Below, piece by piece: positions 898 to 53,482 of a stretch of 64,000 nucleotides of DNA. Below the pieces are notes generated by a model. It was given only the letters and a program-made list of their open reading frames with translations, was not told the DNA's origin and did no database searches. The first letter of the stretch is position 1. The number at the start of each line of letters is the position of its first letter. Made by a program: the position numbers and the translations under genes. This DNA is from Raillietiella orientalis (taxonomy: Eukaryota): positions 62,001-126,000 of the forward strand of contig JAYWIR010000090.1 in assembly GCA_036172245.1 (NCBI GenBank), in the 5' to 3' direction.

Positions 898-910
898 GTC
901 TTCCCCTTTT

Positions 911-3900: not shown

Positions 3901-4428
3901 TTAGCGATTGGCACGACGCTCTGGAGGAGTGACCTTCCGCCGGGCACCTAGGATGACCTCCTGATGTTTTATCATGGAGGAATCCAGAGTGGGTCCTGAT
4001 TGCAGCACTACACCGGAAGAAGGGAAGATCAAGACTGCACAGCATGTGCAGACATCGACACGAGACTTCACGTCTTGACGTGTCCCACGTTGGTGCATGA
4101 CTGGCTGATCCTGAAAAGGATCATCGGACTCACCACCAGGTCCGTAATGGAGATCCTCGCCGGGATGTTTCAGGGGGATGGTAATGTTCCCTGTTACAAT
4201 CCCATGGTGAGGACGACCATCGCCCTCTTCATCACCGCCATACTTGTGCGGTGGTGGAAAATGAGGAAAGCCAGAAGAGCCGCACCACCGATGGAGATCC
4301 TACAAGGGCTCCTGAAGAGGGAAATCGGCATTAGAAACTGTGGGAAAATTCAAGCCTGGACGTACCGATTCATCCTGAAGAGGATGGAAGACGACGCCCG
4401 GGACGAAACAGCAGGAAACCCACCATGA
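911..4428 (+). pseudogene. A1 ORF2 (APE endonuclease-RT-CCHC), disrupted
   Basis: Pieces 806..2182, 2210..2785, 2891..3370, 4000..4428; C-terminal CTACADIDTRLHVLTC; multiple stops. Confidence 0.9.
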
Positions 4429-4568
4429 GTGCAGAACTTGTGAGAACCCAAGGACTTCATAGTGGTAAAAAAAGTGCTAATGGTATGGATGAGATTGTAG
4501 TGTGAATGTTTTTATAGAAAAATTTTAGAAAAATAAATTTACCCCACCCCTCGTGGGACTTGGGGAAA

Positions 4569-5931: not shown

Positions 5932-8900
5932 ACGAGCGCAGGAGATCGAACGCATCTACGGAGGGCGGCTGTGGTATCGGTGTGGAACATCGAGAAGTTG
6001 TGGTGTCGCCTACCTGCTTCGGCCCGCCATCGAGGCCGCCGCCCGTGGAGTTCGGTTCTACGATCACGGTCGTGTCGGCCAGCTGACTCTCAGCTGGTCC
6101 GACTCGATCGACTTGATCGTTACGAACGTTTACGCCCCGAGCGGAGCAAACCTGACCAACAGGAGGGCCACGAAAGAATATTTCCTTGCCCTCCATCGCG
6201 ACTGGTTGACCGAGGCAGGCGTGCGGAATGCCCATCTGGTTGCAGGCGATTTTAACGTTCGTCTGAAACCGGATGGGCCGAATCAGAAGCGTGACCTGGT
6301 CAAGGAGGTGTGCGCGGCGGTGCACACTTGTAATTTGTTGGCCAGTGTACCAGGGATGGAGGACAACATCGATCACGTGTTCCTTGACGAGCACCTGTGC
6401 ACTCGTGTGGGCAGGCGCTGCAAGTTGCCGTGCGAGTTGTCCGACCATCGACCAATCGTGATTGAAATCCATCCGCGTGACAGGGGCCCCCCTTGTCAGC
6501 GTGGCGTTTGCCAGGGGACTGGGTGAAGATCCCGGATGCGACGGAAAATCTCCGCACGTTTATACGGAGCTTTAGGATGCAGACACTTCAGGATTGGGAC
6601 CGCTTCAAACGGTCGGTCCAGGAGTTCTGCGACCAGTTCCCTCTGCACCGCCTACCTGCGGGATTTGGGGACGGGGTACGTATCTGGAGGCTCGCCGTTA
6701 CGTTAAGACCCCGGACATCCGCAGGCTGGCGGAATACAAAGCGGGAGCCGAGAGGCAAGTTTGGCAGTCAGGATCGGCCAGCTTGCTGGACGATCAGGGC
6801 CAGGAGCATTCGGCACCCGCTCAGATCCGCGGTCTGCTGCGGCGTTTTTACTTCTCCCTGTACGCAAGAACGCCTCCCGAGCGGGATTTCTCACGAATCC
6901 TGCTTCCGGAAGGCGCTTCTGCGATCGGGGAAGAGGAGAAAAAGTCCATCGACGAGTCTTTCACGATGGGCGAGATCATCTCTGCCATCGGAAAGCTCAA
7001 GAGGCGAAAGGCTCCAGGGGAGGACGGCCTGTCCGCGGAGTTTTATCAAACTTTCGCTGCTGAGCTAACCCCCCTGGTACATCAACTCACGTTGCTGATA
7101 CGCGAGACAGGTGACGTTCCCGCCTCGTTTCGTTCGGCAAAGGTGCGGCTTCTCCCTAAGGGAGGAGATCTGAGGAGCATGAGCAACTTTCGTTCCATCA
7201 CAATAGTGAATGCGGATGCCAAGTTGATAGCTAAGGTTTGAGCTGAGCGCTTGCGACGGGTTGCAAACGCCTTCATCAGCCCGGAACAGACGTATGCTGT
7301 TCCGGGGCAAAGCATGGAGGCGAACCTGTTCCGCGCTTCCACCTGGCTAGAGCTCCAACACGAAAGGGGCTTGATGCGCACCGGGAATTCCGGTGAGTCC
7401 GTCAGTCATGCGACGGATGGTCGGATGGGGGAGGGGGCACTTGCGGTCGCTGCCGACTTGCGTAAACCATTCGACAGCGTCGACCAGAAACTCCTGCTGG
7501 AGCTTTTGGAACGCTTGGGCTTCCCGGCCTCATTATTGGCCTATCTGCGCTCTAGCTGGCGCGATGCGCAAATCAATGTTACTTTCAGCGGGCATACTGT
7601 TCACGGCGTGCCGGTGCGACATGGAATCCAACAAGGAGACAGCCTGAGCCCCTTGCTCTTCAGTACCTACTTTGAGTTGGTACTGAAAGCGTACAGGGAA
7701 ACTCTGGCGCACCTGCCGCATGAATGCGCCGGAACGCCTGCGGTTTCAGCATATGCGGACGACCTCCTGCTACTGCTCCCTATGTCCACCCCGGCTTTGG
7801 CGGTCGAGAAGTTCTTCGACCTGCTGAATCGAGGAACCGGGCTTACGGTGAACATGGCTAAGTCGTCCGTGATGCCAGTTGGTGCGGAGTGGGTATGGCA
7901 GCAGGACTGTTTCCGTTTGGGGATCCCCACGGTGAGGTACTTCAAGTACCTTGGTGTGCCGTTGGGGGACTACTCCTTTGCGGAAGCGTGGTCCGGCTGC
8001 CTTCAAAAAGTAGAGACAGCTATCGGCCCGTTCCGAGGCGGCAGGTTTTTCCTGCCTGAACGGGCCACGGTTTGGAACATGTTCGCGGCCCCCCTCCTTC
8101 GCCCCCTACTTTTTGTGTGCCCTACCCCGTATCAAATTAGGACACGGACTAGGGGCCTTATACGGAAAGCCCTCTGGGGCAACCGGAGGCCTCGCGTCCG
8201 GCTCAAAGACTTGTGCGCTCCACGCAGGGACGGTGGACTTGGTCTCCTGACGTTGGAGCGCATGGAGCGACAGCTCCAATTCAGAAAACTTGCCCTTGTG
8301 GCAAAGTTTCGGACAGCACCCTGGTGTGCACCAGCAAGACTCCTTGCTCACAGGACAACCGGCTGCTTCGGATTGACTTCAATTTTGGTAGCCAACGAAC
8401 GCAGCCTGAACCATTGTGGTTATCAGCTGCGGGATTTGGTTGCTCTGATGAGAGACAACCCTGTGATCTCCTGCATCCCAGCGGACTGGACTACCTGGCT
8501 TCAGGAGTCCGTATCCGCATGGGCGAAGATCAATGGCACCAGCGATGAGGACTTCTCCTGCCTCCGCAGAGGGAGGCACGCCGGTCAGCCACTCCAGGAG
8601 ATCGTTTCCAACCCACGGAAACTTCTGTGGGCTTCCTTCACCTTCCTTGCCCCAGTGCTGCCCTTCCTCAGGGAAGTTCGGGACAGCCACCAACAGGCAT
8701 CGGGGGAAGTGTCCTGCCTCATCGGAGGCAGGAAAAAATCACTGAAGGCGTGGACGCCGAGGGAACTAGCGGACGAGGGAACTAGTACCCGGAGTGTCCC
8801 GCCGAACGGACTTTTACGCTGGGGCGCGCTGCTCGGTATACCTCCGGAGGAGGTGAAGTGGCCCCCAGCGTCATGGGACAACGTCACCCTTCCCCTGCAG

Positions 8901-9356
8901 TGGCAGGAGACGGCGTTGCTTCTGCTCCACTGGGGACTTTTAAGCAGAGCACGCCTGTCTCGCTGGACATCGGGGAATGTGGATGCTAGTTGTGCAGAGT
9001 GCGGGGAAAGGGAGACTTTCCCCCACTTGATTCTGGAGTGTGTTGCCCTTTACGAAATGTGGGACAGACTCTCGTCGATCCTCAACATTCCGGAGAGTGA
9101 CCCAAAAAATTTATCCAGACGCCTTCTGACGCGAGACGGCTTGCCAGCCTCCGGGAGCGTAGCAGTGCTCTGCTGCATACGCGGTATCCTGGAGAAGTGG
9201 ACCGCGTCTAGGAGAGGAAGGACCAGCCGGAATGCCATCCACTGGGCAGCGATCTCCTTGGAGAAAGCGTGCCGTTGGCGCCGACTTCAAAAACATTTAC
9301 CGGCACTTGTTCGCATCCGAAATCGGATGCAAAGGCCTGCTCACGGCGCACCGTGA
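5932..9356 (+). pseudogene. F1 ORF2 (APE-RT-CCHC), frameshifted
   Basis: ORFs 6113..6526, 6594..7241, 7251..9356; frameshifts near 6490 and 6680; TGA at 7239. Confidence 0.9.
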
Positions 9357-9620
9357 TCCCCTCCCTCCCTCCCGCTCCCTGAAAACATTGCCCTCCAGAC
9401 GTTTTTCTTTTTTTGTTTTGTTTTCTGTTTATTTTCCCCGTCCCGGCGCCAGTGAAGGACTTTATCGGCCTCCGGGTCGATAAAGACAAGTGCTATTGAA
9501 CTTCAATGAACGTCTGACGTCCGAAAAAGAAATTTTTTTTTTAACAACAAAGACCTTATTACAAAATTTTGTAATGTCAGAATTTCAGTAATAAATGCTC
9601 CGGCTTACCCGGGTGAAAAA
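5932..9620 (+). mobile_element. LINE family F, copy F1: ORF2 from within the APE domain to the 3' end
   Basis: GDFN, IDH, SDH, RT ORF 7251..9356 with YADD and CAECGERETFPHLILEC; ends AATAAATGCTCCGGCTTACCCGGGTGAAAAA. Confidence 0.93.
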
Positions 9621-9798
9621 CCTGAGCTGGGCTGGAGCGTTCTTGGCCCTGATGGTCCAGCAAGCAGGCCTAGGCTAACTGCCAGGCCTGCCTCTCCGCC
9701 ACAGCCTTGAATTCTGCCAAGCGACGGACGTCGGGATGACTGGAATAACGGCGGGCCGGAAGGTATGCCCGCTCGTGCTGACTCCCCCGCCGAATCCC
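9621..9798 (-). mobile_element. Short ORF2 fragment of a host LINE, trapped between the F1 and B1 insertion sites
   Basis: Minus strand reads GFG..YLPARRYSSHPDVRRLAEFKAVAERQAWQ..CLLDHQGQERSSPAQ, the APE-RT linker seen in all relatives. Confidence 0.85.
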
Positions 9799-9919
9799 TT
9801 GGCGAGAGGACGTGTTTTTCCTTCGCTCTTCAGTGAGTAGACAGGAAGCGGTTTTCTTAGTGTGTTTTTGTGTGGAACATCGTTGGTGTCCGATGGTAGC
9901 GTTTCCTGAGGACACCACG

Positions 9920-11640
9920 ATGGATGTAGGTGTGGGGGAGGCTTGCCCACCCTCACAGCCTACAGAATCAGGGACGTCCGACCCGGAATCGCCCTCGCCG
10001 CCTAAAGCGAGGAGCTAAATCGCCATGGTGGCCGCGCCGAGCGCGGAAACCATGGCCGAGATGGCGGCCTACCAAGCACATGGGAACAAGTCCAGCTTGT
10101 TGTACCAGGTAGGCCCCTTATTTGATGGGAAAACGGCACGCGCGTTTTCGAAAGCGCTGCAAAACGCCGGAGCAAAAGAACAAGATCTTGACTGCCTGTT
10201 CGTTCTCAGCGGAGGTCAGCGAGTCGAGGTGGTGTGCAAGGAGATCACCTTGGCTCAGACTCTGATCACCAACCCGTTGAACGTCGACGGCCGAAAGATC
10301 TTGCCGGTGACGATAGACCGCTCCGTGGTGGTCCATCTCACTGGAATAACGAGCCGTATGACTCGCTCTGCGGTAGCACAAGAACTGCAGAAGTTCGGCG
10401 AGGTGCACGCGCTGTGGCCTAAGCCAACAATCTTTGAAGGCTTCAATAGCCATTTCGGAGGCCAGGCTGCAGCGCGGGTAACCGTGAGTAAGGATTGTGG
10501 GCTTCCCCACAAGCTGGAGGTCGCGCAAGAGAGCGTGGACCTCTGATACGCGGGAAAGCCCCGGTATTGCGGCTACTGCGATACCGTAGGACACCTTCGC
10601 AAGAGGTGTCCTAACATCCAATGCCACATGTGCGGGGAGAAGGGCCACGTTCGACGTGTGTGCCCAAAACGCCCCACCCCGGTTCCTCCTGCCGCGAAAA
10701 AGGCGCAGAAAAACGCACACTAAAGGTCACAAGACCTAAGGCGGACGCTGGCCGGCTGAAGCTGCCAGATCCTCAACCTCCAAAAGAAAAGACGGAGGAT
10801 AAACCTTCCCAAGAGGCGGAAGGTGATGAGGGCTGGCAACTTGTAGCAGCCAGAAAAGAGAGAAAAGCTTCTTTAAAGGAGAAGAAAGAGAAGCCGGCCG
10901 GTAAGGCAAAAAAACCCGGGCCGCGTTCGAAAACCATACGCGAGTGCACGGTGGCACTGGAACGTATCGTCGTTCCGGAAGGTGCCACCCGGGGCGACGA
11001 GCCTCCCCTCGCCGTTTCCGTAGCGCCCGAAGTTCGCGACGGCGAACCCTCTGTGCAAACAGAGGGTGATCCGCGCGACGCGCCGGTCGACACCGGAGTC
11101 GCCGCGTTCGCAAAGGCGGCGGAGGAGCTCGCGGCCACGCTGGCGGAGCGTGAGAACCCGTCACGCAAGACCGTGCGAAGGCCGGCTCCCGCGAAAAAGG
11201 CCCCCACAGGTGAGTCGGACCTGGGAGCCGGAAGTGCATCCTCCTCCTCGGAGGCACCCCCCAGCAATCCCGGACGAAAGTCCCAGAAACCCAGGAGGCG
11301 CCTCCCCTCCACCAGCGAGGAGGAGAAGCAGGAAGGTAGCGGTAGCGTGGGAATCCCGGAGGGGGAACTCCCACGCTCGGAAGCCGTCGAGCCGGCCACC
11401 CCCATGGAGAAGGGTGAGCAGGGGGGCGAAGTCCTCCCTGCAGTCGCCGAGCCTGAACAGCCCGCCCCCATGGAGGAGGGCCAACAGGTATGCGCGACCC
11501 CACCTGAGGGTGACCCGCTCGACGCGCCGTTACCCATGGAGGAGGGGGACCAGGTGCACGCAGCGCCTGACCCTCCTCCTCCACCTAGCGTCACGCCCCA
11601 ACAGGTGGCGGACGCCGCATCGCCATGTTCCCAGGAATAA
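9920..11640 (+). pseudogene. B1 ORF1 (2 zinc knuckles, low-complexity C-terminus), disrupted
   Basis: ORFs 10025..10546 and 10621..11640; TGA at 10544 and a frameshift near 10710. Confidence 0.85.
11400..11580 (+). repeat. Three degenerate coding repeats (PMEKGEQ/PMEEGQQ/PMEEGDQ, about 66-69 bp spacing) in B ORF1
   Basis: CCCATGGAG recurs at 11401, about 11467 and about 11533; similar repeats in B2 (28795-28950) and B1' (60819-60998). Confidence 0.7.
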
Positions 11641-12113
11641 CACCTGGGCTCGCCAGTCGCCGTCGGATTCGCGCCGCCTGTTGGAACGTCAACGGGCTGC
11701 GCGACGACGGTAACAGGCGAGATACGGCCGACACCCTGCGTGAGCTCGACCTGGCCCTGCTGCAGGAGATCCACGTGATCACCGCGGCAGACGCCCAGGA
11801 GATCGAGACGATCGCGGGGGGTCGGTTGTATTGGCGGTGCGGCCTCCGCAACACCTGCGTGTTCGCGTTCTTCGTAAAGCCGGCCATCGACGCTGCCGTG
11901 AAGGGCGTGCGCTTCGATGACGACGGTCGGGTCGGTCAGCTGATTCTCAGCTGGTCCGACTCGATCGAATTGATCGTCACGAATGTGTACGCCCCAACCG
12001 GTCAAAAGGATACAGCGACCGCACCAGGCTGCTGGAATCCCTGAAGCGCGACTGGCTGGCGGACACGAACGTGCGGAAGGCTCACCTGATAGCGGGAGAT
12101 TTCAATCGAGTGC

Positions 12114-12125
12114 GGACGTGTTTTT
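12114..12125 (+). promoter_or_regulatory. Conserved 5'-terminal motif (G/A)GACGTGTT(T), candidate internal promoter element (example copy)
   Basis: Within about 10 nt of the 5' junction at 5923(-), 9808, 12114, 18030, 27195, 35413, 48143, 53400, 59226, 61532; the function is inferred. Confidence 0.55.
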
Positions 12126-12185
12126 CTTCGCTCTCGTCTCCGTGCTTTCATCCGCTTCATCTTGGCGTCGTACATTTTGACGACG

Positions 12186-14108
12186 ATGTCGACCCAACTT
12201 GAAGCTACTGAAGTAGGAATAACAGCATCCGGATCTGCAATCGCGGAACCGACGGCCGCCTCCACTTCGTCTTTCTCGCCAATGGAGAGGAGTTTTGCTG
12301 ACGTTGCTGCCACAGCAGCCGTCAAAGGGAAACCACTCGACGAGTCGGAGTTGCGGGCATACCTAGCCCAAGGCTATAGACCTGCTCTCCGATATAAGGT
12401 GAGTGGTTTTCTTTCTGCGCGCGACGGGAATCAGTTCAACGATGAACTGACCCGTGTTGGCGTGCGGGAGGAAGGACCTTCTCGCCATTATGCCCGTAAA
12501 AGACATGGGCTATTTCAAGGTGCGTTGCAAAGACGCTGCACTTGTGCAACGCTTGCTGCGCACCCCGTTGTCGATCCGTGGCCAGAAGGTCTTCCCGGCC
12601 GCCATGGACGACTCATTTGTGGTGGAGATTTTCGACATCGAGTCGGAAATCTCCGATACTGATATTCGGAACGCGGTGGCGAAATTCGCCACGGTCCATG
12701 CGCTGTGGAGGGTGCGTAGCAACCTCAAGGACTTCCCGTCCATACACAGCGGAGTCGCTGGAGTCCGGCTTACAATGCCGGACCGCCGTCTGCTGCCCAC
12801 CAAACTACAGGTGAAAGACACGGTCGTTCACCTGTGGTTCGTGGGCAAAGCAAAAACGTGCAAGCAATGCGGGAAGGAGGGGCATTGTTTGGATAAATGC
12901 CCCTCTGGAAAATGCCGTTATTGCAAACTATCCGGGCACCAATTGAAAAATTGCCCGGATCTTTTGCGAAAAAAGGCAGCCGCAGAGCTCCATCCTAGAA
13001 AACAAAGCGCGGATAAAAAGAAAAAATCTGCGAAAACCTGGACACCCCACGGCAGAAATTCGGTAAAAACGCGAGGCGGAATGTCGCCCCAAAGCAGCAG
13101 GAAACCTCGCACGCGAAGCCCTGCGCGCCCCCTCTCGCGGCAGGGGATCCGCAAAAGAAAGGGTGCGGGGAATCCGGGGCAATGGTAAGTCCCCCTAGGC
13201 GCAATAGCTGTCCTAACCTAGCACGCCCGGCTCTCTCGGAGTTCGAGCAGCCGGCGGGGACGCCAATGGACAACGGCGGTAAGGACACTTCCAGTACCGT
13301 CAAATCCATTCCTTCACCTCCTGCAGTGGCTGAGAAGCCCAAATCGGGTAAGAAGGGTTGTGCCGTGTCGACTTCGAAAGTCGGCAAATAAAAATCCGCG
13401 TCGCGATCCAACACCGCGAAAGCGGAGAAAAATCTCACGCCGTCGCGATCGGAGAGCAGGCTCTCGACTGGCGCGGATGCCATGCCAACGAAGGGATTAA
13501 AAGCCCTTCCGAAGGCAGCGTCCATGACGAGCGAGTCGAAGCCATCCAAAGTGCTCCCGTCCAAAGACGCGGATGGCTTCAAAGATGGCAATGGAGCACA
13601 ATCTCTATTTACGGCGCCACGCGAAGTGAGGAACCGTAATGAAGTAAAGAAGACTTCAGCAAAGGTCCCTCGTGCAACTGCGCGTGAGCACGCTGAAAAC
13701 GCGCGAGCCGGGAAAGCAGCCGTCACCAAAAGCGATGCTCTGGTGACGGAAAACGAAAACAGGACAGCTGTCAACCCAGCAGAACCTGTCACTGCTTCGC
13801 GGAAGGCCGAAACCCGATCGAACATGCGCCGGTCGGACTCCGAAATGGATGCCGTTCCGATCACCGAGACGAGGACAACTCGTTCGAAAGCGTGTGCGCG
13901 CCGATCAAAAGTAGGCAGCCAGGCAACTGTAGCCGCGAAGCCACGCGAAGTCTCCACGAAACCCGACGGGGTTAAGCCTGGCGTGGAGGCATTACATGCA
14001 TGCAGCAAGACAGAGGACGGTGGCGACCGTCCCCTCCAGCCAGTCGTGCTGCTCGCCGTCTGCTCGCCGGATAAAGCGAGCAAAAAGCTGCCACCTTCCC
14101 ACCAGTAA
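12186..14108 (+). pseudogene. C1 ORF1 (2 zinc knuckles), frameshifted
   Basis: ORFs 12162..12662, 12454..13188 (CKQCGKEGHCLDKC, CRYCKLSGHQLKNC), 13182..13391, 13482..14108. Confidence 0.87.
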
Positions 14109-17100
14109 TGCGGGGAATCGCGTCTTCTCGTCGTCTGTCCGTAACGTGTTGGAACGTGAACGGACTGCAGAACGACGAGAAGAGGCGATTAGTAGCCAAC
14201 GCCCTGCGCCCCTTCGACCTTGCGCTGCTGCAGGAGATTCACGTAATCTCCGACGATCAGGCGGCCGAAATCGAGGAGCGCGCAGGCGGAACGCTACATT
14301 GGCGGTGCGGCGGCGCACACACGTGCGGCGTCGCGTTCCTCGTAAGAGGAAAAATGGCGGAAGCGGTGCGTAGTGTTCGTTTCGATGACAACGGACGGAT
14401 AGGCCAGCTTGTCATCAAGTGGTCCGAGTCCATCGATCTCGTCGTTACGAACGTCTACGCGCCGAGTGGCTCTCGGTACCTCGAAGAAAGAGTAGCTTTC
14501 TTTGGTGAGGTGCAGAGCCAGTGGCTCAACAACTCCGGCTTCCAAGTGGCGCACCTCGTCGCTGGGGACTTCAACGTCCGCCTGCTCTCCGACGATTGGA
14601 GCCGCCCGAGGGAGCGCGCGCTGCCCATCGAGATGTGCGCGTCCGTGCACGCCGCCAACTTGATGGTCAGCGAACCTGGAATGGAAAGATCGCTCGATCA
14701 CGTTTTCCTCGATGAAAACCTGCATTCGCGTGTGGGTAGGAGATGAAGATTGTTGACTGAGCTTTCTGACCACCACAGGTTGGAGTTTGAGATCCTTCCG
14801 CCAGGCAGGGGGCCTCCGTTGCAAAGCTGGAGGATGCAGGCGAATTGACTTAGCCAACCGGAGGCTGCGGAGCATCTACGTGGATACCTCCGGGGCTTTG
14901 CCGTTCAAGAACTTGCGGACTGGGACGATCTCAAAAGATCTGTCCGCGAGTTCTGCTGCCAATTCCCCTTGCACCGGCTTCCACGCGGTTTCGGAGAGGG
15001 CGTGGCCAACAGTAGAGACCTTCTGCAGGCCCGCACGTTTTCGAGACGCGCGGATGTCGGGCGTCTCGCAGAGTACAAGGCGAGGGCCGAGCGCCAGGTC
15101 TGGCAGTCCGGAGCAGCATGCCTGTTGGACGACAAGGGCCAGGAATGTTCGGCCCCAGCCGAAGTACGCCGCATTGTGAGACGCTACTACTTCTCGCTCT
15201 ACGGGGAATCCCCGACGGAGGATATTCTTTCTGAGATACTCCTGTCTCAGGATGCTCGTGTTGTCGGCGAGGAGGAACGCGAACGTCTCGACGAGCCCTT
15301 CACGGCGGACGAATTTTCGTCCGCCATCGCTGGGCTGAAGAGACGAAAGGCGCCAGGCGAGGATGGGCTCCCTGCAGAGTTTTATCAGCGCTTTGCAGTG
15401 GAGCTCATTCCCTTGATGCTTAAACTCGCGACGCTGATGAGTGAATCCGGGAATGTCCCTGATTCCTTCCGCTCAGCGAAGGTGCGTCTCCTGCCGAAAG
15501 GCGGAGACTTGCGCCAACTTAACAACTGGCGTCCGATCACCTTGGTGAACTCGGACGTCAAGTTGTTTTCCAAGCTGTGGGTCGCGCGGTTAGAAAGAAT
15601 CGCGGAATCTGTGGTGAGCCCGGAACAAACCTACGCGGTTCCGGGACGATCCATGGAGGCGAACATCCTGTTCGCGCGTACATGGATGCAGCTGCAGGAA
15701 GTTGTGGCGCAGCAAAGCCAGGCTGCTGCGAAAGTCACTGCCGCAGGCAAAAAGAACAGGCGCCGACGGCAGGAGGGAACGCCAGGTGCCTTGGCGGTCG
15801 CGGTCGATCTCCACAAGGCGTTCGACTGCGTAAACCAGACGCTGCTTTTGGAGCTTATGGAACGCCTTGGGTTCCCGGCGCAACTCCTGCTGTATTTGCG
15901 CGCGTGCTGGCGCCACGCGCTAACCTGCATCACTTTTAGCGGCTGCCGCGTGTATGGTATTCCCGTTCGTAGGGGCATCCGACAGGGCGACAGCTTAAGC
16001 CCGTTGCTCTTCAGCATCTTCTTTGAGTTGGTGCTAAGAGCATACAGGCTGACGCTGTCTCACTTGCCAAGCTCCTGCCCGGGAACGCCTGCCGTGGCCG
16101 CCTACGCTGCTGACCTGCTTCTTCTGCTCCCCATGTCCACCCCGGCGTCCAGTGTCGAGGATTTCTTCGACCTGATTCGTCGAGGAGCGGGCGTGAGCGT
16201 GAACAGAGAGAAGAGCGTGGTCGTTCCTGTGGGTACGTCGTGGGAGGGGCAGTCCGACTGGATCCGCCTGGGGATCACCACGGGCGGGTACTTTAAGTAC
16301 CTTGGCGTTCCGTTGGGCGCTTTCGGCGCAGCCGAAGCGTGGGCGGACTGTCTTCAGAAAGCAGAGTTGACCATCAGCCCGTTCTTTAACGGCAAGTTTA
16401 CCTTGCAGGAACGGGCGACTATTTTGAACACCTTTGTGGCCCCCCTCCTCCGTCCCCTGTTTTTTGTTTTGAACCCCCCCTATGCGGCAAAACAGCGGGC
16501 TAAGCGCCTGCTCAGGAACGCTCTCTGGGGTCCGGCGAGATCCAGGATCCGCCTTAAAGATTTGTCAGCTCCGCGTCGGGATGCTGGTTTGGGTATCCTG
16601 ACAATGGAGCGAATCGGACTGCAGGTGCAGTTCTGACTGCTGGCACTGTGTGCCCAGCTATGGACATCCCCCCTGTGTGTGCCAGCTCGCATTCTCCTGC
16701 GGAGATGCGCCGGCAGCGGAGGATTTCTCTCGCTTTTGCCGGGCACTCAATACAGGAAGCGGGGTTTCGGTTTTCCGGTGCGGCAGTTGACCGCACTTCA
16801 GGAAGCACACTCTTGGATCTCCTGCCGCCCAATGAACTTTGAAGCTTGGCGGCAGGAGTCTGTTGAATCCTGGGCGGCGTTCCAAGGAATACGCCCTGAA
16901 GATCTTCGCCCCCTACGCCAATTTTTTCCACGATCCTTGGAAGAAGTACTGCAGGACGAGGTGAAGTTTTCTACCCTGGCTGCCACGCCTCTTGCCGTAG
17001 CGCTGTCTGCCCTCAGGGCAAGAAACGACAGTTACCAACCGGCCAGGTGGGAGGTTTCCTGCACGATAGCGGGAAGAACCAAACTGCTTGGCACCTGGAA

Positions 17101-17701
17101 GACAAGTGAGTTTGCGGACGCCGCCACTCCTCGTGTTACTGCAAAGGGACTCCTCCGGTGGGCAGAAGAACTTGCTGTCACCCCCGAAGAACTTGTAGTC
17201 CCTTGACAGTGTATGGACAGTTGGCTGCTCCCCCTTGCTTGGAAACAAGCCGTGCTGCTTTTCGTTCACTGGGGTTTTCAGTGCAACGAGCGTTGGCATC
17301 GTGACTCCGGGGGACTTGCGTCTGCGAACTGCGTTCGGTGCGGATCGACGGAGTCGATTCTGCACCTACTTCTGGACTGCGGTGTCCTACAAGGACTGTG
17401 GCGTAGGCTGGCAACAGCACTATTGCATCCCGTGGACACCGCAAGAGACTTGCTGCGACGATTCTTCACGCCGAGCGGGCTTTCACTTAGCGCAAGGATT
17501 GCAACCATCGGTTGCATACGCGCGATAGTTTCCGTCTGCCAGGCGTTGGTAATCAACGGACAGCACCAAGAAGTAATCAGCAAAGCATCCTTCTACATGG
17601 GAGCATCCGCTAGATGGCCTCATCTGACAGAGGAGACAAAGAGGAATCTCGCCGCAATACACCGCCGGTTTACACACCCTCATCAGCGGCCAACCCGGTG
17701 A
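14108..17701 (+). pseudogene. C1 ORF2 (APE-RT-CCHC) with in-frame stops and YADD mutated to YAAD
   Basis: ORFs 14108..14746, 14969..16636, 16679..17206, 17213..17701 all lie in one frame; CVRCGSTESILHLLLDC. Confidence 0.92.
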
Positions 17702-18101
17702 TCATTGCCCTACCCTCCATAAACTAAATTTGTATTTTCTTTTTACACCCGCGTCCCCATAGGCTCCGGAACATTTTAGGTGCTCATCGTATAAATCCCC
17801 GTGAGTACGGAGCCTAACCAAAAACCCGTTACCCTTCCCTCCAGTTTTTGATTTTTGTTTGTTTCCCCTCATTCCCCCCACGCTGCGAGCGGTTTGTTTA
17901 CCAGGCCTGCGAGCTGGTAATTTTTCTATGTTCTCTGTCGTTCTGTTGGCTGGGGACATTGTCCCTGACCAGTTTATTATTATTAATAAACGCCCCGGCG
18001 TGACCGGCTGATAAATTTCAATCGAGTGCGGACGTGTTTTTCTTCGCTCTCGTCTCCGTGCTTTCATCCGCTTCATCTTGGCGTCGTACATTTTGACGAC
18101 G

Positions 18102-20022
18102 ATGTCGACCCAACTTGAAGCTACTGAAGTTGGAGGAACAGCATCCGGATCTGCAATCGCGAACCGACGGCCGCCTCCACTTCGTCTTTCTCGCCACTGG
18201 AGAGGAGTTTTGCTGACGTTGCTGCCACAGCAGCCGTCAAAGGGAAACCACTCGACGAGTCGGAGTTGCGGGCATACGTAGCCCAAGGCTATAGACCTGC
18301 TCTCCGTTATAAGGTAAGTGGTTTTCCTTCTGCGCGCGACGGGAATCAGTTCAACGATGAACTGACCCGTGTTGGCATGCGGGAGGAGGACCTTCTCGCC
18401 ATTATGCCCGTAAAAGACATGGGCTATTTCAAGGTGCGTTGCAAAGACGCTGCACTTGTGCAACGCTTGCTGCGCACCCCGTTGTCGATCCGTGGCCCGA
18501 AGGTCTTCCCGGCAGCCATGGACGACTCATTTGTGGCGGAGATTTTCGACATCGAGTCGGAAATCTCCGATATTGATATTCGGAACGCGTTGGCGAAATT
18601 CGCCACGGTCCATGCGCTGTGGAGGGTGCGTAGCAACCTCAAGGACTTCCCGTCCATACACAGCGGAGTCGCTGGAGTCCGGCTTACAATGCCGGACCGC
18701 CGTCTGCTGCCCACCCAACTACAGGTGAAAGACACGGTCGTTCACCTGTGGTTCGTGGGCAAAGTAAGAACGTGCGAGCAATGCGGGAAGGAGGGGCATT
18801 GTTTGGATAAATGCCCCTCTGGAAAATGCCGTTATTGCAAACTATCCGGGCACCAATTGAAAAATTGCCCGGACCTTTTGCGAAAAAAGGCAGCCGCGGA
18901 GCCCCATTTTAAAAATCAAAGCGCGGATAAAAAGAAAAAATCTGCGAAAACCCTGGAGACCCCACGGCAGAAATTCCGAAAAAACGCGAGGCGGAATGTC
19001 GCCCCAAAGCAGCAGGAAACCTCGCACGCGAAGCCCTGCGCGCCCCCTCTCGCGGCAGGGGAGCCGCAAAAGAAAGGGTGCGGGGAATCCGGGGCAATGG
19101 TAAGTCCCCCTAGGCGCAATAGCTGTCCTTCGCAAGCACGCCCGGCTCTTTCGGAGTTCGTGCAACCGGCGGGGACGTCAATGGACAACGGCGGTAAGGA
19201 CACTTCCAGTACCGTGAGATCCATTCCTTCACCTCCTGCAGTGGCTGAGAAGCCCAAATCGGGTAAGAAGAGTTGTGCAGTGTCGACTTTGAAAGTCGGC
19301 AAAAAAAAATCCGCGTCGCGATCCAACACCGCGAAAGCGGAGAAAAATCTCACGCCGTCGCAATCGGAGAGCAAGCTCTCGACTGGCGCGGATGCCATGC
19401 CAACGAAGGGATTAAAATCCCTTCCGAAGACAGCGTCCATGACGAGCGTGTCGAAGCCATCCAAAGTGCTCCCGTCCAAAGGCGCGGATGGCTTTAAAGA
19501 TGGCAATGGAGCACAATCTCCATTTACGGCGCCACGCGAAGTGAGGAACCGTAATGAAGTAAAGAAGACTTCAGCAAAGGTCCCTCGTGCAACTGCGCGT
19601 GAGCACGCTGAAAACGCGCGCGCCGGGAAAGCAGCCGTCACCAAAAGCGATGCTAGGAGACGGAAAAAGGCAACAGGACAGCTGTCAATCCAGCAGAACC
19701 TGTCACTACTTCGCGGAAGGCCGAAACCCGATCGAACATGCGCCGGTCGGACTCCGAAATGGATGCCGTTCCGATCACCGAGACGAGGACAACTCGTTCG
19801 AAAGCGTGTGCGCGCTGATCAAAAGTAGGCAGCCAGGCAACTCTAGCCGCGAAGCCACGCGAAGTCTCCACGAAACCCGACGGGGATAAGCCTGGCGTGG
19901 AGGTATTACATGCATGCAGCACGACAGAGGACGGTGGCGACCGTCCCCTCCAGCCAGTCGTGCTGCTCGCCGTCTGCTCGCCGGATAAAGCGAGCAAAAA
20001 GCCGCCACCATCCCAGCAGTAA
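18102..20022 (+). pseudogene. C2 ORF1, frameshifted
   Basis: Main ORF 18266..19828 with 2 knuckles; frameshifts near 18160 and 19655. Confidence 0.87.
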
Positions 20023-23000
20023 TGCGGGGAATCGCGTCTTCTCGTCGTCTGTCCGTAACGTGTTGGAACGTGAACGGACTGCAGAACGACGAGAAGAGGC
20101 GATGAGTAGCCAACGCCCTGCGCCATTTCGACCTCGCGCTCCTGCAGGAGATTCTCGTAATCGCCGACGAGCAGGCAGCCGAAATCGAGGAGCGCGCAGG
20201 CGGAAGGCTACATTGGCGGTGCGGCGGCGCACACACGTGCGGCGTCGCGTTCCTCGTAAGAGGAAAAATGGCGGAAGCGGTGCGTAGTGTTCGTTTCGAT
20301 GACGACGGACGGATAGGCCAGCTTGTCATCAAGTGGTCCGAGTCCATCGATCTCGTCGTTACGAACGTCTACGCGCCGAGTGGCTCTCGCTACCTCGAAG
20401 AAAGAGTAGCTTTCCTTGGTGAGGTGCAGAGCCACTGGCTCAACAACTCCGGTTTCCAAGTGGCGCACCTCGTCGCTGGGGACTTCAACGTCCGCCTGCT
20501 CTCCGACGATTGGAGCCGCCCGAGGGCGCGCGCGCTGCCCCTCGATATGTGCGCGTCCGTGCACGCTGCCAACTTGATGGTCAGCGAACCTGGAATGGAA
20601 AGATCGCTCGATCACGTTTTCCTCGATGAAAACCTGCATTCGCGTGTGGGTAGGAGAGGAAGATTGTTGACTAAGCTTTCTGACCACCACAGGTTGGAGT
20701 TTGAGATCCTTCCGCCAGGCAGGGGGCCTCCGTTGCAAAACTGGAGGATGCAGGCGGATTGGCTTAGCAAACCGGAGGCTGCGGAGCATCTACGAAGATA
20801 CCTTCGAGGCATTGCCATTCAAGAACTTGCGGACTGGGAAGATCTCAAAAGATCTGTCCGCGAGTTCTGCTGCCAATTCCCCTTGCACCGGCTTCCACGC
20901 GGTTTCGGAGAGGGCGTGGGCAACAGTAGAGACTTTCTGCAGGCCCGCACGTTTTCGAGACGCGCCGATGTCGGGCGTCTCGGAGAGAACAAGGCGAGGG
21001 CCGAGCGCCAGGTCTGGCAGTCCGGAGCAGCATGCCTGTTGGACGACAAGGGCCAGGAATGTTCAGCCCCAGCCGAAGTACGCCGCATTGTGAGACGCTA
21101 CTACTCCTCTCTGTACGCGGAATCCCCGACGGAGGATATTCTTTCTGAGATACTCCTGTCTCAGGATGCTCGTGTTGTCGGCGAGGAGGAACGCAAACGT
21201 CTCAACGAGCCCTTCACGGCGGATGAATTTTCGTCCGCAATCGCTGGGCTGAAGAGAAGAAAGGCGCCAGGTAAGGATGGGCTCCCTGCAGAGTTTTATC
21301 AGTGCTTTGCAGTGGAGCTCATTCCCTTGATGCTGAAACTCGCGACGCTGATGAGTGAATCCGGGAATGTCCCTGATTCCTTCCGCTCAGCGAAGGTGCG
21401 TCTCCTGCCGAAAGGCGGAGACTTGCGTCAACTTAACAACTGGCGTTCGATCACCTTGGTGAACTCGGACGTCAAGTTGTTTTCCAAGCTGTGGGTCGCG
21501 CGGTTAGGAAGTATCGCGGAATCTGTGGTGAGCCCGGAACAAACCTACGCGGTTCCGGGACGATCCATGGAGGCGAACATCCTTTTCGCGCGTACATGGA
21601 TGCAGCTGCAGGAAGTTGTGGCGCAGCAAAGCCAGGCTGCTGCGAAAGTCACTGCCGCAGGCAAGAAGAACAGGCGCCGACGGCAGGAGGGAACGCCAGG
21701 TGCCTTGGCGGTCGCGGTCGATCTCCACAAGGCGTTCGACTGCTTAAACCAGAAGCTGCTTTTGGAGCTTATGAAACGCCTTGGGTTCCCGGCGCAACTC
21801 CTGCTGTATTTGCGAGCGTGCTGGAGCCACGCGTCAACCTGCATTACTTTCAGCGGCTGGCGCGTGTATGGCATTCCCGTTCGTAGATGCATCCGACAGG
21901 GCGACAGCTTAAGCCCGTTGCTCTTCAGCATCTTCTTTGAGTTGGTGCTAAGTGCATACAGGCTGACGCTGTCTCACTTGCCAAGCTCCTGCCCGGGAAC
22001 GCCTGCCGTGGCCGTCTACGCTGATGACCTGCTTCTTCAGCTCCCCATGTCCACCCCGGCGTCCAGTGTCGAGGATTTCTTCGACCTGATTCGTCGGGGA
22101 GCGGGCGTGAGCGCGAACAGATAGAAGAGCGTGGTCGTTCCTGTGGGTACGTCGTGGGAGGGGCAGCCCGACTGGATCCGCCTGGGGATCCCCACGGGCG
22201 GGTACTTTAAGTACCGTGGCGTTCCGTTGGGCGCATTCGGCGCAGCCGAAGCGTGGGCGGACTGTCTTCAGAAAGCAGAGTTGGCCATCAGCCCGTTCTT
22301 TAACGGCAAGTTTACCTTGCAGGAACGGGCGACTATTTGGAACACCTTTGTGGCCCTTCTCCTCCGTTCCCTGTTTTTTGTTTTGGACCCCCCCTATGCG
22401 GCAAAACAGCGGGCTAAACGCCTGCTCAGGAACGCTCTCTGAGGTCCGGCGAGATCCAGAATCCGCCTCAAAGATTTGTTTGCTCCGCGTCGGGATGCTG
22501 GTTTAGGTATCTTAGCAATGGAGCGAATCGGACTGCAGGTGCAGTTCCGACTGCTGGCACTGTGTGCCCAGCTATGGACATCCCCCCTGTGTGTGCCAGC
22601 CCGCATTCTCCTGCGGAGATGAGCCGGCAGCGGAGGATTTCTCTCGCTTTTGCCGGGCACTCAATACAGGAAGCGGGGTTTCGGGTTTCCATTGCGGCAG
22701 TTGACCGCACTTCTGGGAGCTCACTCGTGGATCTCCTGCCGCCCAATGACTTTGAAGTTTGGCGGCAGGAGTGTGTGGAATCCTGGACGGCGTTCCAAGG
22801 AATACGCCCTGAAGATCTTCACCCCCTGCGTCAATTTTTTCCACGATCCTTGGAAGAAGTACTGCAGGACGAGGTGAAGTTTTCTACCCTGGCTGCCACG
22901 CCTCTTGCAGCAGCGCTGTCTGCCCTCAGGGCAAGAAACGACAGTGACCAACCGGCGAGCTGGGTGGTTTCCTGCACGATAGCGGGAAAAACCAAAATCC

Positions 23001-23613
23001 TTGGCGCCTGGAAGACGAGTGAGTTGGCGGACGCCGCCACTCCTCGTGTTACTGCAAAGGGACTCCTCCGGTGGGCAGAAGAACTTACTGTAACCCCCGA
23101 AGAAGTTGTAGTCCCTCCACAGTGTATTGACAGTTCGCTGCTCCCCCTTGCTTGGAAACAAGCCGTGCTGCTTTTCGTTCACTGGGGTTTTCAGTGCAAC
23201 GAGCGTTGGCATCGTGACTCCGGGGGACTTGCATCTGCGAATTGCGTTCGGTGCGGATCGCGGAGTCGATTCCGCACCTACTTCTGGACTGCGGTGTCCT
23301 ACAAGGACTGTGGCGTAGGCTGGCAACAGCACTAATGCATCCCGTGGACACCGCAAGAGACTTGCTGCGACGATTCTTCACGCCGAGCGGGCTGTCACTA
23401 AGCGCAAGGATTGCAACCATCGGTTGCATACGAGCGATAGTTTCCGTCCGCCAGGCGTTGGTAATCAACGGACAGCACCAAGAGGTAATCAGCAAAGCAT
23501 CCTTCAACATAGGAGCATCCGCTAGATGGCCTCATTTGACAGAGGAGACAAAAAGGAATCTCGCCGCAATACACCGCCGGTTTACACACCCTAAGCAGCG
23601 GCCAACGCGGTGA
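20022..23613 (+). pseudogene. C2 ORF2 (APE-RT-CCHC), disrupted
   Basis: ORFs 20268..22124 (GDFN, LDH, SDH, YADD), 22131..22442, 22562..23335, 23242..23613. Confidence 0.92.
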
Positions 23614-23896
23614 TCATTGCCCTACCCTCCATAAACTAATTTTGTATTTTCTTTTCACACCCGCGTCCCCATAGGCTCCGGAACATTTTAGGTGCTCATC
23701 GTTTAAGTCCCCGTGAGTACGGAGCCTAACCAAAAACCCTTGACCCTTCCCTCCAGTTTTTGATTTTTGTTTGTTTCCCCTCATTCCCCCCACGCTGCGA
23801 GCGGTTTGTTTACCAGGTCTGCGTGCCGGGAATTTTTCTATGTTCTCTGTCGTTCTGTTGGTTGCAGACATTGTCCCTGACCAGTTTATTATTATT

Positions 23897-23926
23897 AATA
23901 AACGCCCCGGCGTGACCGGGTGATAA
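23897..23926 (+). other. Conserved 3'-terminal AATAAA + CCCGG-N5-CCGGG hairpin (example copy)
   Basis: Present at all 11 visible 3' ends (variant form in family A; AATGAA in H). Confidence 0.8.
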
Positions 23927-24268
23927 ATTTCAATATCCGTCTGCTAACAGGTGAGCCAGAAACACAAGAAAACGCGATGAACGAGTTGTGTGCCGCCATG
24001 CGTGCGCGAAACTTGTTCGCGGGTGAGAAGGGAATGGTCCGAAGCATCGACCACGTCTTTCTCGACGCTGACCTCTGTTCACGGTCGGCCAACGGGAGAG
24101 GGTTGCGTCGACGTTGTCGGACCATTCCCGGTTAATTTTCGAGATGCGGCCTCGCGACAAGGGACCGCCATCCAGGAATTGGCGTCTGCCGGGGGACTGG
24201 ACGCGACTCTCAGGTGCGAAGGAACACCTTCGCGAATACCTGAGAGGCGTCACGCTCCGGAATCTCCA
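23927..24268 (+). mobile_element. B1 continuation (rest of the APE domain), then interrupted by D
   Basis: Resumes (D)FNIRLLTGEPETQE..IDHVFLD, homologous to B2 29493-29835. Confidence 0.9.
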
Positions 24269-27185
24269 TTGAAACCCGGTTGCGCCGGGTCGTTTATTCT
24301 CACGAATAAACCTATACAATCTGTGACTAAACCAGTAGTCCAGCCACGCCCTGGAAAGATATAGCTTGCCGGGCTACCGGTGCGCAGACCAGCGCGGTCG
24401 ACCTCGGCCGCAGAAGGGAGGGGGAACGAAACAAAAAGAAAACAAAAAATAAACAAAAATCAGGGAGGGAGCGGGAAGGGATCACAGTCTGCTGGGAGGG
24501 TCCGTCATCCTCTGGAGGATGCCGGCAAGCTGTTTCTGCTTGTGTGGTTCCAGATGGGGCCATCGCGTCGCCATCCTGAAGAAACGGGCGGCATACACGT
24601 TGGCATCCCTGTCGCTGGATCCTTTCGTCGCTTTGCTCCATGCCACGACGATCCCGCGTAGGCAGCACAGGGCTGCAAGCGACGCCGCTGGAGGCAGGGC
24701 GTCACAGACGAAGAGGGGGCGCAAAGCGTCTCTGGGGTTGCCCCTGGGGATCCCCAGGGCTGCGGCAAAGCGTTCCCACAAGGGACGGAGGGCAACACAA
24801 TCCACTAACAGGTGGGGGAGGTATTCCCTCTCCCCGCACCTGACACAATTAGGGTTGACACCCGTCCGCGTCCAGTGGTGTCGGCGGGCATTGCAAGGAA
24901 GCCCCCAATGCAACACCAGCAGTGCCGACTGTTGCCACTTCATGGGGAGGGTGCGCGAGTCCATGAGCACCGGGGGCCACTCGAGATGTCCCTCTGGAAC
25001 ATCCAGTAGCTCTCCCCAGCGCAACAGTCCATTTGAGGTGGTCCTCAAGGTCGCAGCGTTGGTGAGCTGACCCGTTCTCCAATCCCCGATCTTCTTTGCC
25101 CTGCTGGCGATCTTGAAAGTAACCTCCCATTGTGCCGCGACGTCGCTGCCCAGATGTTCCCGTAGGGTAGGCAGTACCGCAGCAAGGGAGGTTCTTTGTG
25201 CCCACGCTCTCCTTCGGGGATTCTCGATGATTTCTCGGAGCGTGCGGCGGGCATGCGGCCCGAACAGAGCTATTCTCTCGTGTTGCGGGCTCTGCTCCTG
25301 AATCATCGCCCACGTGCGGACGGTTTCCTGCAACCAGGCAGGACCGTTCGCGGGGCGTACGAGGATCCGCGCCGAGTTGTTCTTCACGAGCTTGGCCGCC
25401 CTCCGAAGTTGAAGTCCGCAGTGAAAGATGAGGCTTCGGAGTGCAAAGTAGGACGAGAGTCCCGCATTGCCGGTGGCCCGCTCGACGAGGAGACGTGCAG
25501 GGAGGCACCAAGGGGTGCACCAATTTTCTGCCATAAAGGCAACAACTCGGAACTGGAGCTGTAGCTCCAGCCGCTCCAACGTCAGGAGGCCCAGACCACC
25601 ATCCCGACGAGGAGCGCACAAGTCCGAAAGACGGACTAGGGGCCTCCCTCTGCCCCAAAGGGCGATCCTCAGGGGGTCCTTCGTCCTCTTCTTTGACTCC
25701 GCTGAGGGGGAGGAAAAAAAAAGCAAGGGGCGAAGGAGGGGGGCCGCAAACGCGTTCCACGCCACGGCCCGTTCATGCAGGAAGAACCTGCCGTCCTGGA
25801 ACGGGCCGATCGCCTCCTGAGCCTTCTGAAGGCAGCCGGACCACGCTTCCGTAGGGGAGTAATCCTCCAACGGCACACCAAGGTACTTGAAGTACCTCAC
25901 CGTGGAGATCCCCAAACGGACCCAGTCCTGCTGCCCTCCCCACGCCGCTCCGACTGGCATTACGGACGACTTCGCCCTGTTCACCGTCAGTCCTGTTCCA
26001 CGACTCAGCAGGTCGAAGAAGTCCTCGACCGCCGAGGCCGGGTTAAACATAGGCAGCAGCAGCAGAAGATCGTCCGCGTACGCTGAAACCGCACGCGTAC
26101 CGGGGCAATCGCACGGCAGGTGCGCCAGAGTCTCCCTGTACGCTCTCAGCACCAATTCGAAAAAGGCGCTAAAGAGCAGGGGGCTCAGGCTGTTTCCCTG
26201 CCGTATGCCGCGTCGCACCTGCACGGAGTACACGGTTCGCCCGCTGAAAAGAGCATTAATGAGCGCGTCGCGCCAGCTGGAGCGCAGGTAGGCCAACAAA
26301 GAGGCCGGGAAACCCGAGCGTTTTAGAAGCTCCAGCAGGAGATTCTGGTCGACGCTGTCGAATGCTTTACGCATGTCGACAGCGACCGCAAGGGCTCCCT
26401 TCCCCACCCGACCGTTCCGTCTCCCGCCAACGGACGCAGCGGAATTCCGACTGCTCAATAAGCCCCTTCCTTGTTGGAGCTCTAACCATGTGGAAGCGTG
26501 GAACAGGTTCGCCTCCATACTTCGCCCGGAAACAGCATATGTCTGTTCCGTGCTGATGAAGATGTTGACGACCCGTCCCAAGCGCTCTGCCCACGGCTTG
26601 GCTAGCAACCTGGCGTCCGCATTCACTATTGTGATGGGACGCCGGTTGTTCATGCTCCTTAGGTCTCCTCCCTTCGGGAGGAGCCGCACCTTTGCTGAAC
26701 GAAACGAGATGGGAACGTCACCTGTCTCGCGTATCAGCAAGGTGAGTTGATGTACCAGGGGCGTTAGCTCAGCCGCGAAAGTTTGATAAAACTCCGCAGG
26801 CAGGCCGTCCTCCCCTGGAGCCTTTCGCCTCTTGAGCTTTCCGATGGCCGAGATGATCTCGCCCATCGTGAAAGGCTCGTCGAGGTTTCTTTTCTCCTCC
26901 TCCCCGATCGCTGGAGCACCTTCCGGAAGCAGGAGTCGTGAGACAGCCTGCTCCGGAGGCGCCCTGGCGTACAGGAAGGAGTAAAATTTCCTCACTATCC
27001 CGCGTTTCTGAGGGGGAACCGAGTGCTCCCGGCCCTGGCCGTCCAGCAAGCTGGCCGACCCGGATTGCTAGGCTTGCCTCTCGGCTCCCGCTCGATACTC
27101 TGCTAACCTGCGCATGTCGGGGGTTCTCGCGTAACTTCGGGCCCGAAGATAGCACCTTTCGTTACGCGGCCCCTCCCCAAATCCC
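24269..27185 (-). mobile_element. LINE copy D, 3' segment (RT-CCHC, 3' UTR), antisense in B1
   Basis: 855-aa ORF 24482..27049 with DMRKAFD, YADD, CVRCGEREYLPHLLVDC; ends AATAAACGACCCGGCGCAACCGGGTTTCAA. Confidence 0.93.
24482..27049 (-). pseudogene. D ORF2 RT and C-terminal domains (longest uninterrupted frame in the window, but separated from its APE by B2)
   Basis: RT motifs intact; the upstream part lies at 34666-35404. Confidence 0.9.
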
Positions 27186-36767: not shown

Positions 36768-36906
36768 TTTCCCCAAGTCCCACAAGGGGTAGGATAAATT
36801 TATTTTTCGAAAATTTTTCTACAAAAGCATTCACACTACAGTCTCATTCTTACAATTGGCACTGTCTTTACCACTCTGAAGTCCATGGGTTCACAAGTTC
36901 TGCACT

Positions 36907-40413: not shown

Positions 40414-40426
40414 AAAAGGGAAAGAC

Positions 40427-53390: not shown

Positions 53391-53482
53391 GGCTAGAGCG
53401 GACGTGTTTCCTCGGTGCTACTCGTGCCGGGAACCGTCCCTAGGTGTAGGCTTCGTGTGTGGTGGTGGTCGATCAGGCTGCA

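Follow-up and report, generated by a model that had tools for sequence, protein, structure and literature searches.

The stretch analysed here, a 64,000-bp window corresponding to positions 62,001 to 126,000 of contig JAYWIR010000090.1 of Raillietiella orientalis, is derived in its entirety from long interspersed nuclear elements (LINEs). Mapping the window's proteins back onto it, together with exact junction strings, resolved a nest of at least six L1-like sibling lineages comprising 13 host–insert pairs. The element at the centre of this study, host H, is interrupted by two full-length copies of another lineage, family C, arranged in tandem. H and every other large frame in the window are of the same kind as C, namely LINEs encoding an endonuclease and a reverse transcriptase (RT). 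The 5′ part of H (9799..12106, + strand) comprises a conserved 5′ start (TTGGCGAGAGGACGTGTTTTTC), open reading frame (ORF) 1 and the N-terminal part of the endonuclease up to a GDFN motif, and is decayed, with at least one frameshift near 12000. C1 (12107..18014, + strand; 5,908 bp) and C2 (18023..23926, + strand; 5,904 bp) follow, separated from each other and from H by three copies of the 8-mer ATTTCAAT, all on the + strand. The first (12099..12106) consists of the last 8 bases of the GAT-TTC-AAT codons of H, the second (18015..18022) lies between the 3′ end of C1 (..CCGGCTGATAA) and the 5′ end of C2 (CGAGTGCGGACG..), and the third (23927..23934) is followed by the H codons ATC CGT CTG (IRL). 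The C-terminal part of the H endonuclease (..SIDHVFL..) occupies 23927..24268 (+ strand), where it is cut by the 3′ end of an antisense element, D1. ORF2 of C1 is a single frame with several in-frame stops and that of C2 contains one in-frame stop and two 1-bp deletions. Both copies are thus dead, and their decay yielded no order of relative age. Besides C1, C2 and a third copy described below, C3, no further C ends occur in the window.

Direct reading of the junctions confirmed in full the preliminary description of this locus, according to which the 8-mer recurs at 12099, 18015 and 23927 and removal of C1 and C2 restores the peptide GDFNIR. At 12099, host sequence ending in ..GCGGGAG is followed by ATTTCAAT and the start of C1, CGAGTGCGG. 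At 18015, the end of C1, GGCTGATAA, is followed by ATTTCAAT and the start of C2, again CGAGTGCGG. At 23927, the end of C2 (GGGTGATAA; ..CCGGGTGATAA) is followed by ATTTCAAT and host sequence ATCCGTCTG. The H frame reads ..KAHLIAGDFN to 12106 and IRLLTGEPE.. from 23935, such that removing both C copies rejoins AHLIAGDFN to IRLL. The rejoined frame aligned without gaps at the junction to that of an uninterrupted paralogue, H2 (AHLIAGDFNLRLLSGEPE, from 29489). With three identical 8-mers and precise ends, the array is a genuine insertion that duplicated 8 bp of target exactly in the GAT-TTC-AAT codons. The H frame meets a stop inside C, and the host ORF is consequently destroyed. By contrast, the target site is regenerated, as the 8-mer is present on both flanks of each C copy.

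A scan of the window located ATTTCAAT at 12099, 18015, 23927 and 61517 on the + strand and at 6461 and 55879 on the − strand. These six occurrences compare with an expectation of 1.28, and none of 100 shuffles gave six. In a self-comparison, the segments 12099-18022 and 18015-23934 were 96.0% identical over 5,925 columns. The 230 substitutions and six 1-bp indels that separate C1 from C2 (3.9% divergence) are distributed along the entire length, indicating that the tandem is not an assembly duplication of a single copy.

The motif interrupted by C is part of the active site of the host endonuclease. The H2 endonuclease matched human L1-EN chains, and its GDFN aligned with residues 144-147 of the latter. 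According to a passage in PMC8565326, D145 of the human L1 endonuclease is essential for catalysis. The Asp of the target motif in H is therefore the catalytic Asp, as had been proposed. Among 14 endonuclease copies in the window aligned at this Asp, GATTTCAAT is present only in H and its segmental duplicate (see below), and these are also the only two copies occupied by C. The 12 unhit copies each differ from the 8-mer by at least one base, none containing ATTTCAAT: the motif is GACTTCAAC in the three C copies and in a further endonuclease copy, C″, GACTTTAAT in H2, GATTTTAAC in two copies of D2, GATTTCAAC in D1, GACTTTAAC in D3, GACTTTTAC in K2 and GATCTCAAC in two copies of a distant LINE, X. 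In total, eight versions of these nine bases other than GATTTCAAT occur among the unhit copies, six being synonymous (GAY-TTY-AAY) and two being changed motifs, GDLN (X) and GDFY (K2). The suggestion that the target is hard to lose by mutation was accordingly overstated: unhit copies lose the 8-mer by synonymous change. In H2, the uninterrupted motif (GGGGACTTTAAT; 29489..29500, + strand) is unlike that of H at 3 of 12 bases. The occupancy of GATTTCAAT alone fits sequence-specific recognition by C.

By the signatures in its translation, family C is an L1-like retrotransposon lacking long terminal repeats (non-LTR) with a predicted APE-type endonuclease. The ORF1 frame (18128-19828 in C2) contains two CX2CX4HX4C knuckles, read from the translation, which we take to be a mark of plant/Tx1-type ORF1; a Pfam search of this frame returned no match. 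In C2, the Exo_endo_phos domain spans 20106-20687 and RVT_1 spans 21408-22037. PF03372 matched C2 (E 4.8e-08; 33.5 bits, cut-off 24.5) and H2, and PF00078 matched C2, D1 and D2, each above cut-off. PF13966 (zf-RVT), the C-terminal zinc-binding motif of L1-clade ORF2, fell short of its 27.5-bit cut-off with 19.7 bits in D1 and 23.4 bits in D2, and did not match the C-terminal frame of C2. Protein database relatives comprised one sequence at 66% identity (P0014) and others at no more than 29%, the named ones being plant L1 elements. In the protein Atlas, the cluster nearest to the RT is named Transposon TX1 149 kDa protein (0.97), which we regard as a lead only to Tx1 kinship. A metagenome scan with the C endonuclease–RT region identified two distant loci at 37-40% identity, too remote to inform on junctions.

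The ends of the elements share a common organization. Copies of C have the 5′ end CGAGTGCGGACGTG.. and a conserved start, ..GTGCGGACGTGTTTTTC, and end in AATAAAC, a GC-rich palindrome and TGATAA (terminal sequence ..CCGGNTGATAA), without poly(A). The 3′ ends of all lineages consist of AATAAA(C/T), a GC-rich palindrome and TGATAA, TGAAAA or TTTCAA, and poly(A) was absent from all eight 3′ ends read. A consensus fold of eight 3′ ends, for which at least two of the eight rows were misplaced in the input, yielded a weak 5-pair stem (−3.3 kcal/mol). At the other end, a core, G.GACGTGTT, lies a few bases inside the 5′ junction in nine of nine aligned 5′ ends representing all lineages (12107, 18023, 61525, 9799, 27186, 53399, 5933 on the − strand, 35401 and ~48160). 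Possible roles of this core are those of an internal promoter, an initiator or a signal for recognition of the 5′ end. An Rfam search, which would include a 5′ self-cleaving ribozyme of a kind that could suit an element inserting in sense orientation, matched no family. The observed/expected CpG ratio is 1.0.

The fourth + strand occurrence of ATTTCAAT belongs to a segmental duplicate. Positions 5934-12106 and 55353-61524 differ by 9 mismatches and 1 gap over 6,173 columns (99.85% identity), and the duplicate extends over 5934-14581 and 55353-64000, with a spacing of 49.4 kb. The second locus comprises H′ (59217..61524, + strand), which ends in ATTTCAAT (61517-61524), and C3, the counterpart of C1 (61525..64000, + strand), which is cut by the window end. 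The identity of the flanks indicates that locus 2 is a recent DNA-level duplicate of locus 1, and its ATTTCAAT is therefore not an independent target. In a comparison of 12107-14582, 18023-20498 and 61525-64000, C3 was C1-like outside alignment columns 1042-1902. Inside these columns, it sided with C2 at 31 sites and with C1 at 8, and stood alone at 4. C3 is thus a mosaic, which shows that the C copies underwent gene conversion once the segmental duplication had taken place. The mosaic also hints at a C2-like neighbour at locus 2 beyond the window. Overall, the nest has been shaped by DNA-level duplication as well as by retrotransposition. The left edge of the duplicate in copy 1 is masked by an insertion of K and X that is missing from copy 2, and copy 2 is formally nested within the insertion chain that begins in host H of copy 1.

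Further junctions were found in a public DNA run, X1 (Logan contigs), which holds 44% of the sampled C2 words. Of the 64 pieces and 45 loose ends in X1, the results cover 9 and 7, respectively, such that absences carry no weight. A contig of 3,755 bases contains 21 bases of H (..GCGGGAG) followed by C, reproducing the H–C 5′ junction. Among the matches listed, all four contigs that cover base 23935 have C instead of A. One of these four, a 151-base contig of depth 2, runs from 90 bases of a C-like 3′ end through the 8-mer into H-like sequence (51 bases), differing at 16 of 149 bases; the host at this diverged junction reads CTC (Leu, as in H2). This contig indicates that diverged copies of the same C–H junction exist. 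Another contig, which leaves a C-like 3′ end after 23928, was first taken for C at an unrelated site. This assignment was rejected: the sequence past the loose end matches an antisense D-family endonuclease at 55336-55358 (22 of 23 bases), the place where a C-like lineage, K, interrupts D elements in the window, and the contig would fit the 3′ junction of K at this fixed site, with the 12-bp duplication AGCGCAGGAGAT. Runs X2 and X3 gave 0 and 1 matching pieces, respectively.

The lineages surrounding C use recurrent sites of their own. Apart from the GDFN site, four further homologous sites, at codons ~24, ~241, ~268 and ~325 of ORF2, were each hit two or three times, in different hosts, by one of four other lineage groups. 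The other 12 host–insert pairs, some of which were parsed from one junction plus adjacency only, are all antisense, which bears out the statement that C is the sole sense-oriented inserter. At codon ~241, between L(Q/E/D) and DW, the 3′ end of antisense D1 joins H after ..AATCTCCA (24268/24269) and that of antisense D3 joins K2 after ..GAGCTCGA (43863/43864). The homologous place in unhit H2 reads ..AGTCTCGA followed by AGATTGG. D1 and D3 are 75.7% alike. The hosts belong to opposite endonuclease clades, H-type and K-type (100/98 support), and the 861-aa frame in the 3′ part of D1 (24269..27185, − strand) is still open, indicating that D1-in-H and D3-in-K2 are separate recent events. The open frame of D1, covering the RT and C-terminal part at 24482-27067 (− strand), persists despite the splits by H2 and K2 upstream, making D1 one of the youngest-looking pieces of the window.

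A second recurrent site, the GFG site (GGATTTGGGG; antisense form CCCCAAAT), is used by H-type elements. The 5′ part of H2 (27186..29915, + strand) is inserted antisense in D1 at CCCCAAAT, and CCCCAAAT recurs directly after its 3′ end at 34665; the 5′ flank ends in CCCCAAATCCC (27175-27185) and CCCCAAATTCC follows the 3′ end (from 34666). E, an H-like, 5′-truncated antisense copy (29916 to about 31732), joins H2 by its 3′ end at H2's own GGATTTGGGG (29915/29916), and the 5′ end of H joins an antisense fragment, T, at the same GFG codons. E and H2 share 77% nucleotide identity, making this a same-lineage insertion. It bears on the proposal that C avoids its own copies. The motif of C itself (GGGGACTTCAAC; 14564, 20478 and 63983) is indeed 2 bases off the target 8-mer, but self-avoidance is no general rule, given that E sits in a host of its own lineage.

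At codon ~325, after PA(E/Q)V, the 3′ end of D2 (5934..9619, + strand) joins antisense fragment T (9620-9798) after PAQV (9619/9620), and the 3′ end of T2 joins C″ after AAEV (51222/51223, with 51223 on the − strand). At codon ~24, antisense K cuts D2 with its 5′ end at AGCGCAGGAGAT (5933/5934) and K2 cuts D1 (35400/35401); AGCGCAGGAGAT is intact in D2′ (55353-55364). The two K copies are 94.2% alike vs 84.3% for their D hosts, and being closer than their hosts, they represent separate insertion events. The target duplications differ in length between lineages: 8 bp for C, ~12 bp for K and ~11 bp for H2. Together, these recurrent junctions at homologous codons show that the sibling lineages in this nest demonstrably insert site-specifically.

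Several details of the nest stand apart from these sites. K is found twice with an antisense copy of X at one and the same position, at 1-5933 and, inverted, at 35401-41330; the composite of K and X may have moved as a unit, or X may likewise use a fixed site, in the ORF1 of K. At 53385-53399 and 59038-59216, the 5′ side of D2′ meets T2 at RT codon ~542 and its 3′ side meets T at codon ~325, and ~650 bp of host are missing at this insertion, through target deletion or later loss. In a tree of N-terminal endonuclease sequences, D1 groups with D2 (85/84 support), whereas its target site and 3′ terminal palindrome (GGCGCAACCGGG) are common to D3. This mismatch may reflect recombinant elements or specificity determinants outside the first 125 endonuclease residues, although the support is too weak for interpretation.

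The anatomy of the locus is that of target-primed reverse transcription, by which C entered H in sense orientation. From the junctions, we infer that a first nick would fall in the strand complementary to the H coding strand, at the left edge of ATTTCAAT, where cDNA synthesis would be primed from the 3′ end ..TGATAA. A second nick in the coding strand, 8 bases further right, would create the stagger that is filled to give the 8-bp duplication. A second C, ~4% divergent, would then have landed in an 8-mer rebuilt on both sides of the first, producing an array in which target duplications and C copies alternate. Later DNA-level events generated locus 2 by segmental duplication and patched the C copies by gene conversion. 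Concerning the source of specificity, no common motif was found among the nicked sequences of the five sites, and no pairing of 3′ tails with target flanks was evident by eye. Specificity is therefore attributed to proteins, most simply to diverged endonucleases. For R1Bm, PMC1919474 assigns at least part of the target specificity to the APE endonuclease; by analogy, it may be endonuclease-borne in the present lineages.

We consider sequence-specific insertion of C, followed by re-insertion to form the tandem, to be probably the best overall explanation of the locus. That C possesses a sequence specificity of its own appears likely, judging from its siblings and from the diverged junction in X1. 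Taken on its own, re-insertion into the regenerated site is favoured as the origin of the tandem at about an even chance. The preliminary description had allowed for either site re-use or unequal crossover. Re-use is preferred because the array is exact to the base and an 8-bp repeat provides scant homology for starting unequal crossover, but the tandem may instead have arisen by exchange. Several observations weigh against sequence-specific re-insertion. The window contains a single independent C target, the flanks of locus 2 having diverged by 0.15%. C1 and C3 differ at 39 of 2,476 bases vs 9 of 6,173 in the flanks, a 10-fold excess, and recombination acting on C copies makes exchange-type tandem origins feasible. 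The diverged X1 junction, at depth 2, may reflect no separate hit but an old duplicate, and no X1 contig among the matches listed bridges the C–C junction. Moreover, ATTTCAAT occurs without C on the − strand at 6461-6468 and 55879-55886, antisense in D2 and D2′, in the context GGATGG-ATTTCAAT-CACGAT. These empty sites indicate that the 8-mer alone is insufficient for C or that occupancy is incomplete. Finally, passages in PMC9977147 describe ZeppL arrays of Chlamydomonas as expanding and contracting by unequal exchange. The original interpretation of C thus stands with respect to the insertion, its duplication and its position in the motif, and is weaker for the site-specificity of C, which was drawn from one independent target.

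The single independent target and the unequal exchange described for ZeppL lend some weight to the view that C has no site specificity: a chance insertion in an almost wholly LINE-derived region would have become a tandem at the DNA level, through replication slippage, unequal sister-chromatid exchange between the 8-bp repeats or some further kind of duplication, and would then have spread by segmental duplication. Any insertion into a window that is wholly LINE-derived would hit a LINE, the GDFN position was noticed post hoc, and the mosaics of C1, C2 and C3 attest to active homology-driven exchange. We nevertheless judge this account unlikely, though not negligible. Unequal crossover would find a very poor starting substrate in eight bases, the units of the tandem abut with base precision, and diverged copies of the same junction occur in X1. 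In addition, every other testable lineage has a fixed site, such that a non-specific sibling would be the exception. A single-event dimer, in which the RT ran off one C RNA at its 5′ end and switched to the 3′ end of another that carried read-through ATTTCAAT, would make the middle 8-mer RNA-borne. Non-LTR reverse transcriptases are known to jump end to end between templates, and the identity of the middle 8-mer and the precise ends of two full-length copies agree with it. It is nonetheless improbable: the 3.9% divergence demands two donor RNAs or long decay, the non-templated bases usual at such junctions are not present, and there is no evidence of read-through transcripts, no RNA run being among the matches listed. 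Least probable is an assembly artefact. A nest with repeats of ~6 kb poses difficulties for assembly, and the C–C junction, unbridged among the X1 matches listed, would accord with such an error, but the differences along the full length of C1 and C2 and the exact fit of both outer junctions and the host frame argue against it.

Beyond the tandem, base-precise junctions that recur point to related LINE lineages recognising defined sequences within one another's ORFs. This guild of lineages using fixed sites in one another is a wider and more interesting result than the C tandem. The known targets of site-specific LINEs comprise rDNA, telomeres, small RNA genes, microsatellites and a single DNA transposon; the guild is a variant of this behaviour. 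The literature searched, which did not include the original Zepp papers and hence does not prove absence, contained no account of LINEs in which each lineage inserts at its own fixed site within the ORFs of the others, and the literature read offered no molecular rule for nested Zepp clusters. A broader model, to which we assign slightly less than an even chance, is that of a 'LINE reef'. Sibling L1/Tx1-like lineages with diversified nicking would each home to their own fixed site in the ORF2 of a fellow LINE (codons ~24, ~126 [GDFN], ~241, ~268 and ~325), each insertion creating new targets. C would be the sense-strand GDFN variant, which grows arrays by site re-use, and the whole would provide a base-level mechanism for Zepp-type clusters and possibly centromeres. 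If confirmed genome-wide, the pattern would explain the nucleation and growth of LINE-only clusters away from genes. It would also supply a natural set of related APE endonucleases with different specificities from which to learn LINE target choice, and an instance of transposon competition in which each insertion kills the copy that it enters.

The likeness of C to homing elements, raised in the preliminary description, holds in one respect. Homing endonuclease genes, inteins and mobile introns also use conserved catalytic-site sequences as landing places. The analogy was otherwise overstated: unlike homing elements, C does not splice out, it disrupts the host ORF for good while rebuilding the target site, and insertion proceeds by nick-primed reverse transcription rather than by double-strand-break repair.

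In architecture, the window resembles the clusters of Zepp in Chlorella and Coccomyxa and of ZeppL in Chlamydomonas, which passages in PMC8226300 and PMC3446292 describe as dense, nested LINE-in-LINE clusters. Such clusters are GC-rich relative to the genome (Zepp, 61% GC), and ZeppL arrays have later been reshaped by unequal exchange (passages in PMC9977147). By contrast, the 3′ ends of Zepp and L1-1_CR are (A)n according to Table 3 of PMC3747384, whereas the elements described here end in a GC-rich palindrome without poly(A). Further, the present nest combines six or more sibling lineages that differ in the fixed site they use, and the passages on Zepp report no base-precise target inside the LINE's own ORFs. 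The likeness to Zepp drawn here is one of architecture.

In behaviour, the nest also resembles site-specific LINEs. The landing place of Tx1L is a fixed sequence within a second transposon, Tx1D. The Tx1 group is described in PMC3747384 as a target-specific branch of the L1 clade with an APE endonuclease. Tx1L and its relatives have the APE endonuclease in common with C and its siblings, and target-specific insertion in common with the siblings and probably with C; the name of the nearest Atlas cluster points the same way. Unlike in the Tx1 group, the target here is the coding sequence of a sibling LINE and not a DNA transposon, an RNA gene or a microsatellite. R1/R2 and other LINEs specific for rDNA or telomeres (R1Bm, SART1, TRAS) likewise use base-precise sites in conserved multicopy sequence, and R1-type elements also have target duplications of fixed length and 3′ ends other than poly(A), which in R1-type elements are recognised by the RT. 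By contrast with R1-type elements, which target an array of host genes, C and its siblings have as their target another selfish element, so that the 'safe haven' is mobile and evolving, and several specificities coexist within a single nest.

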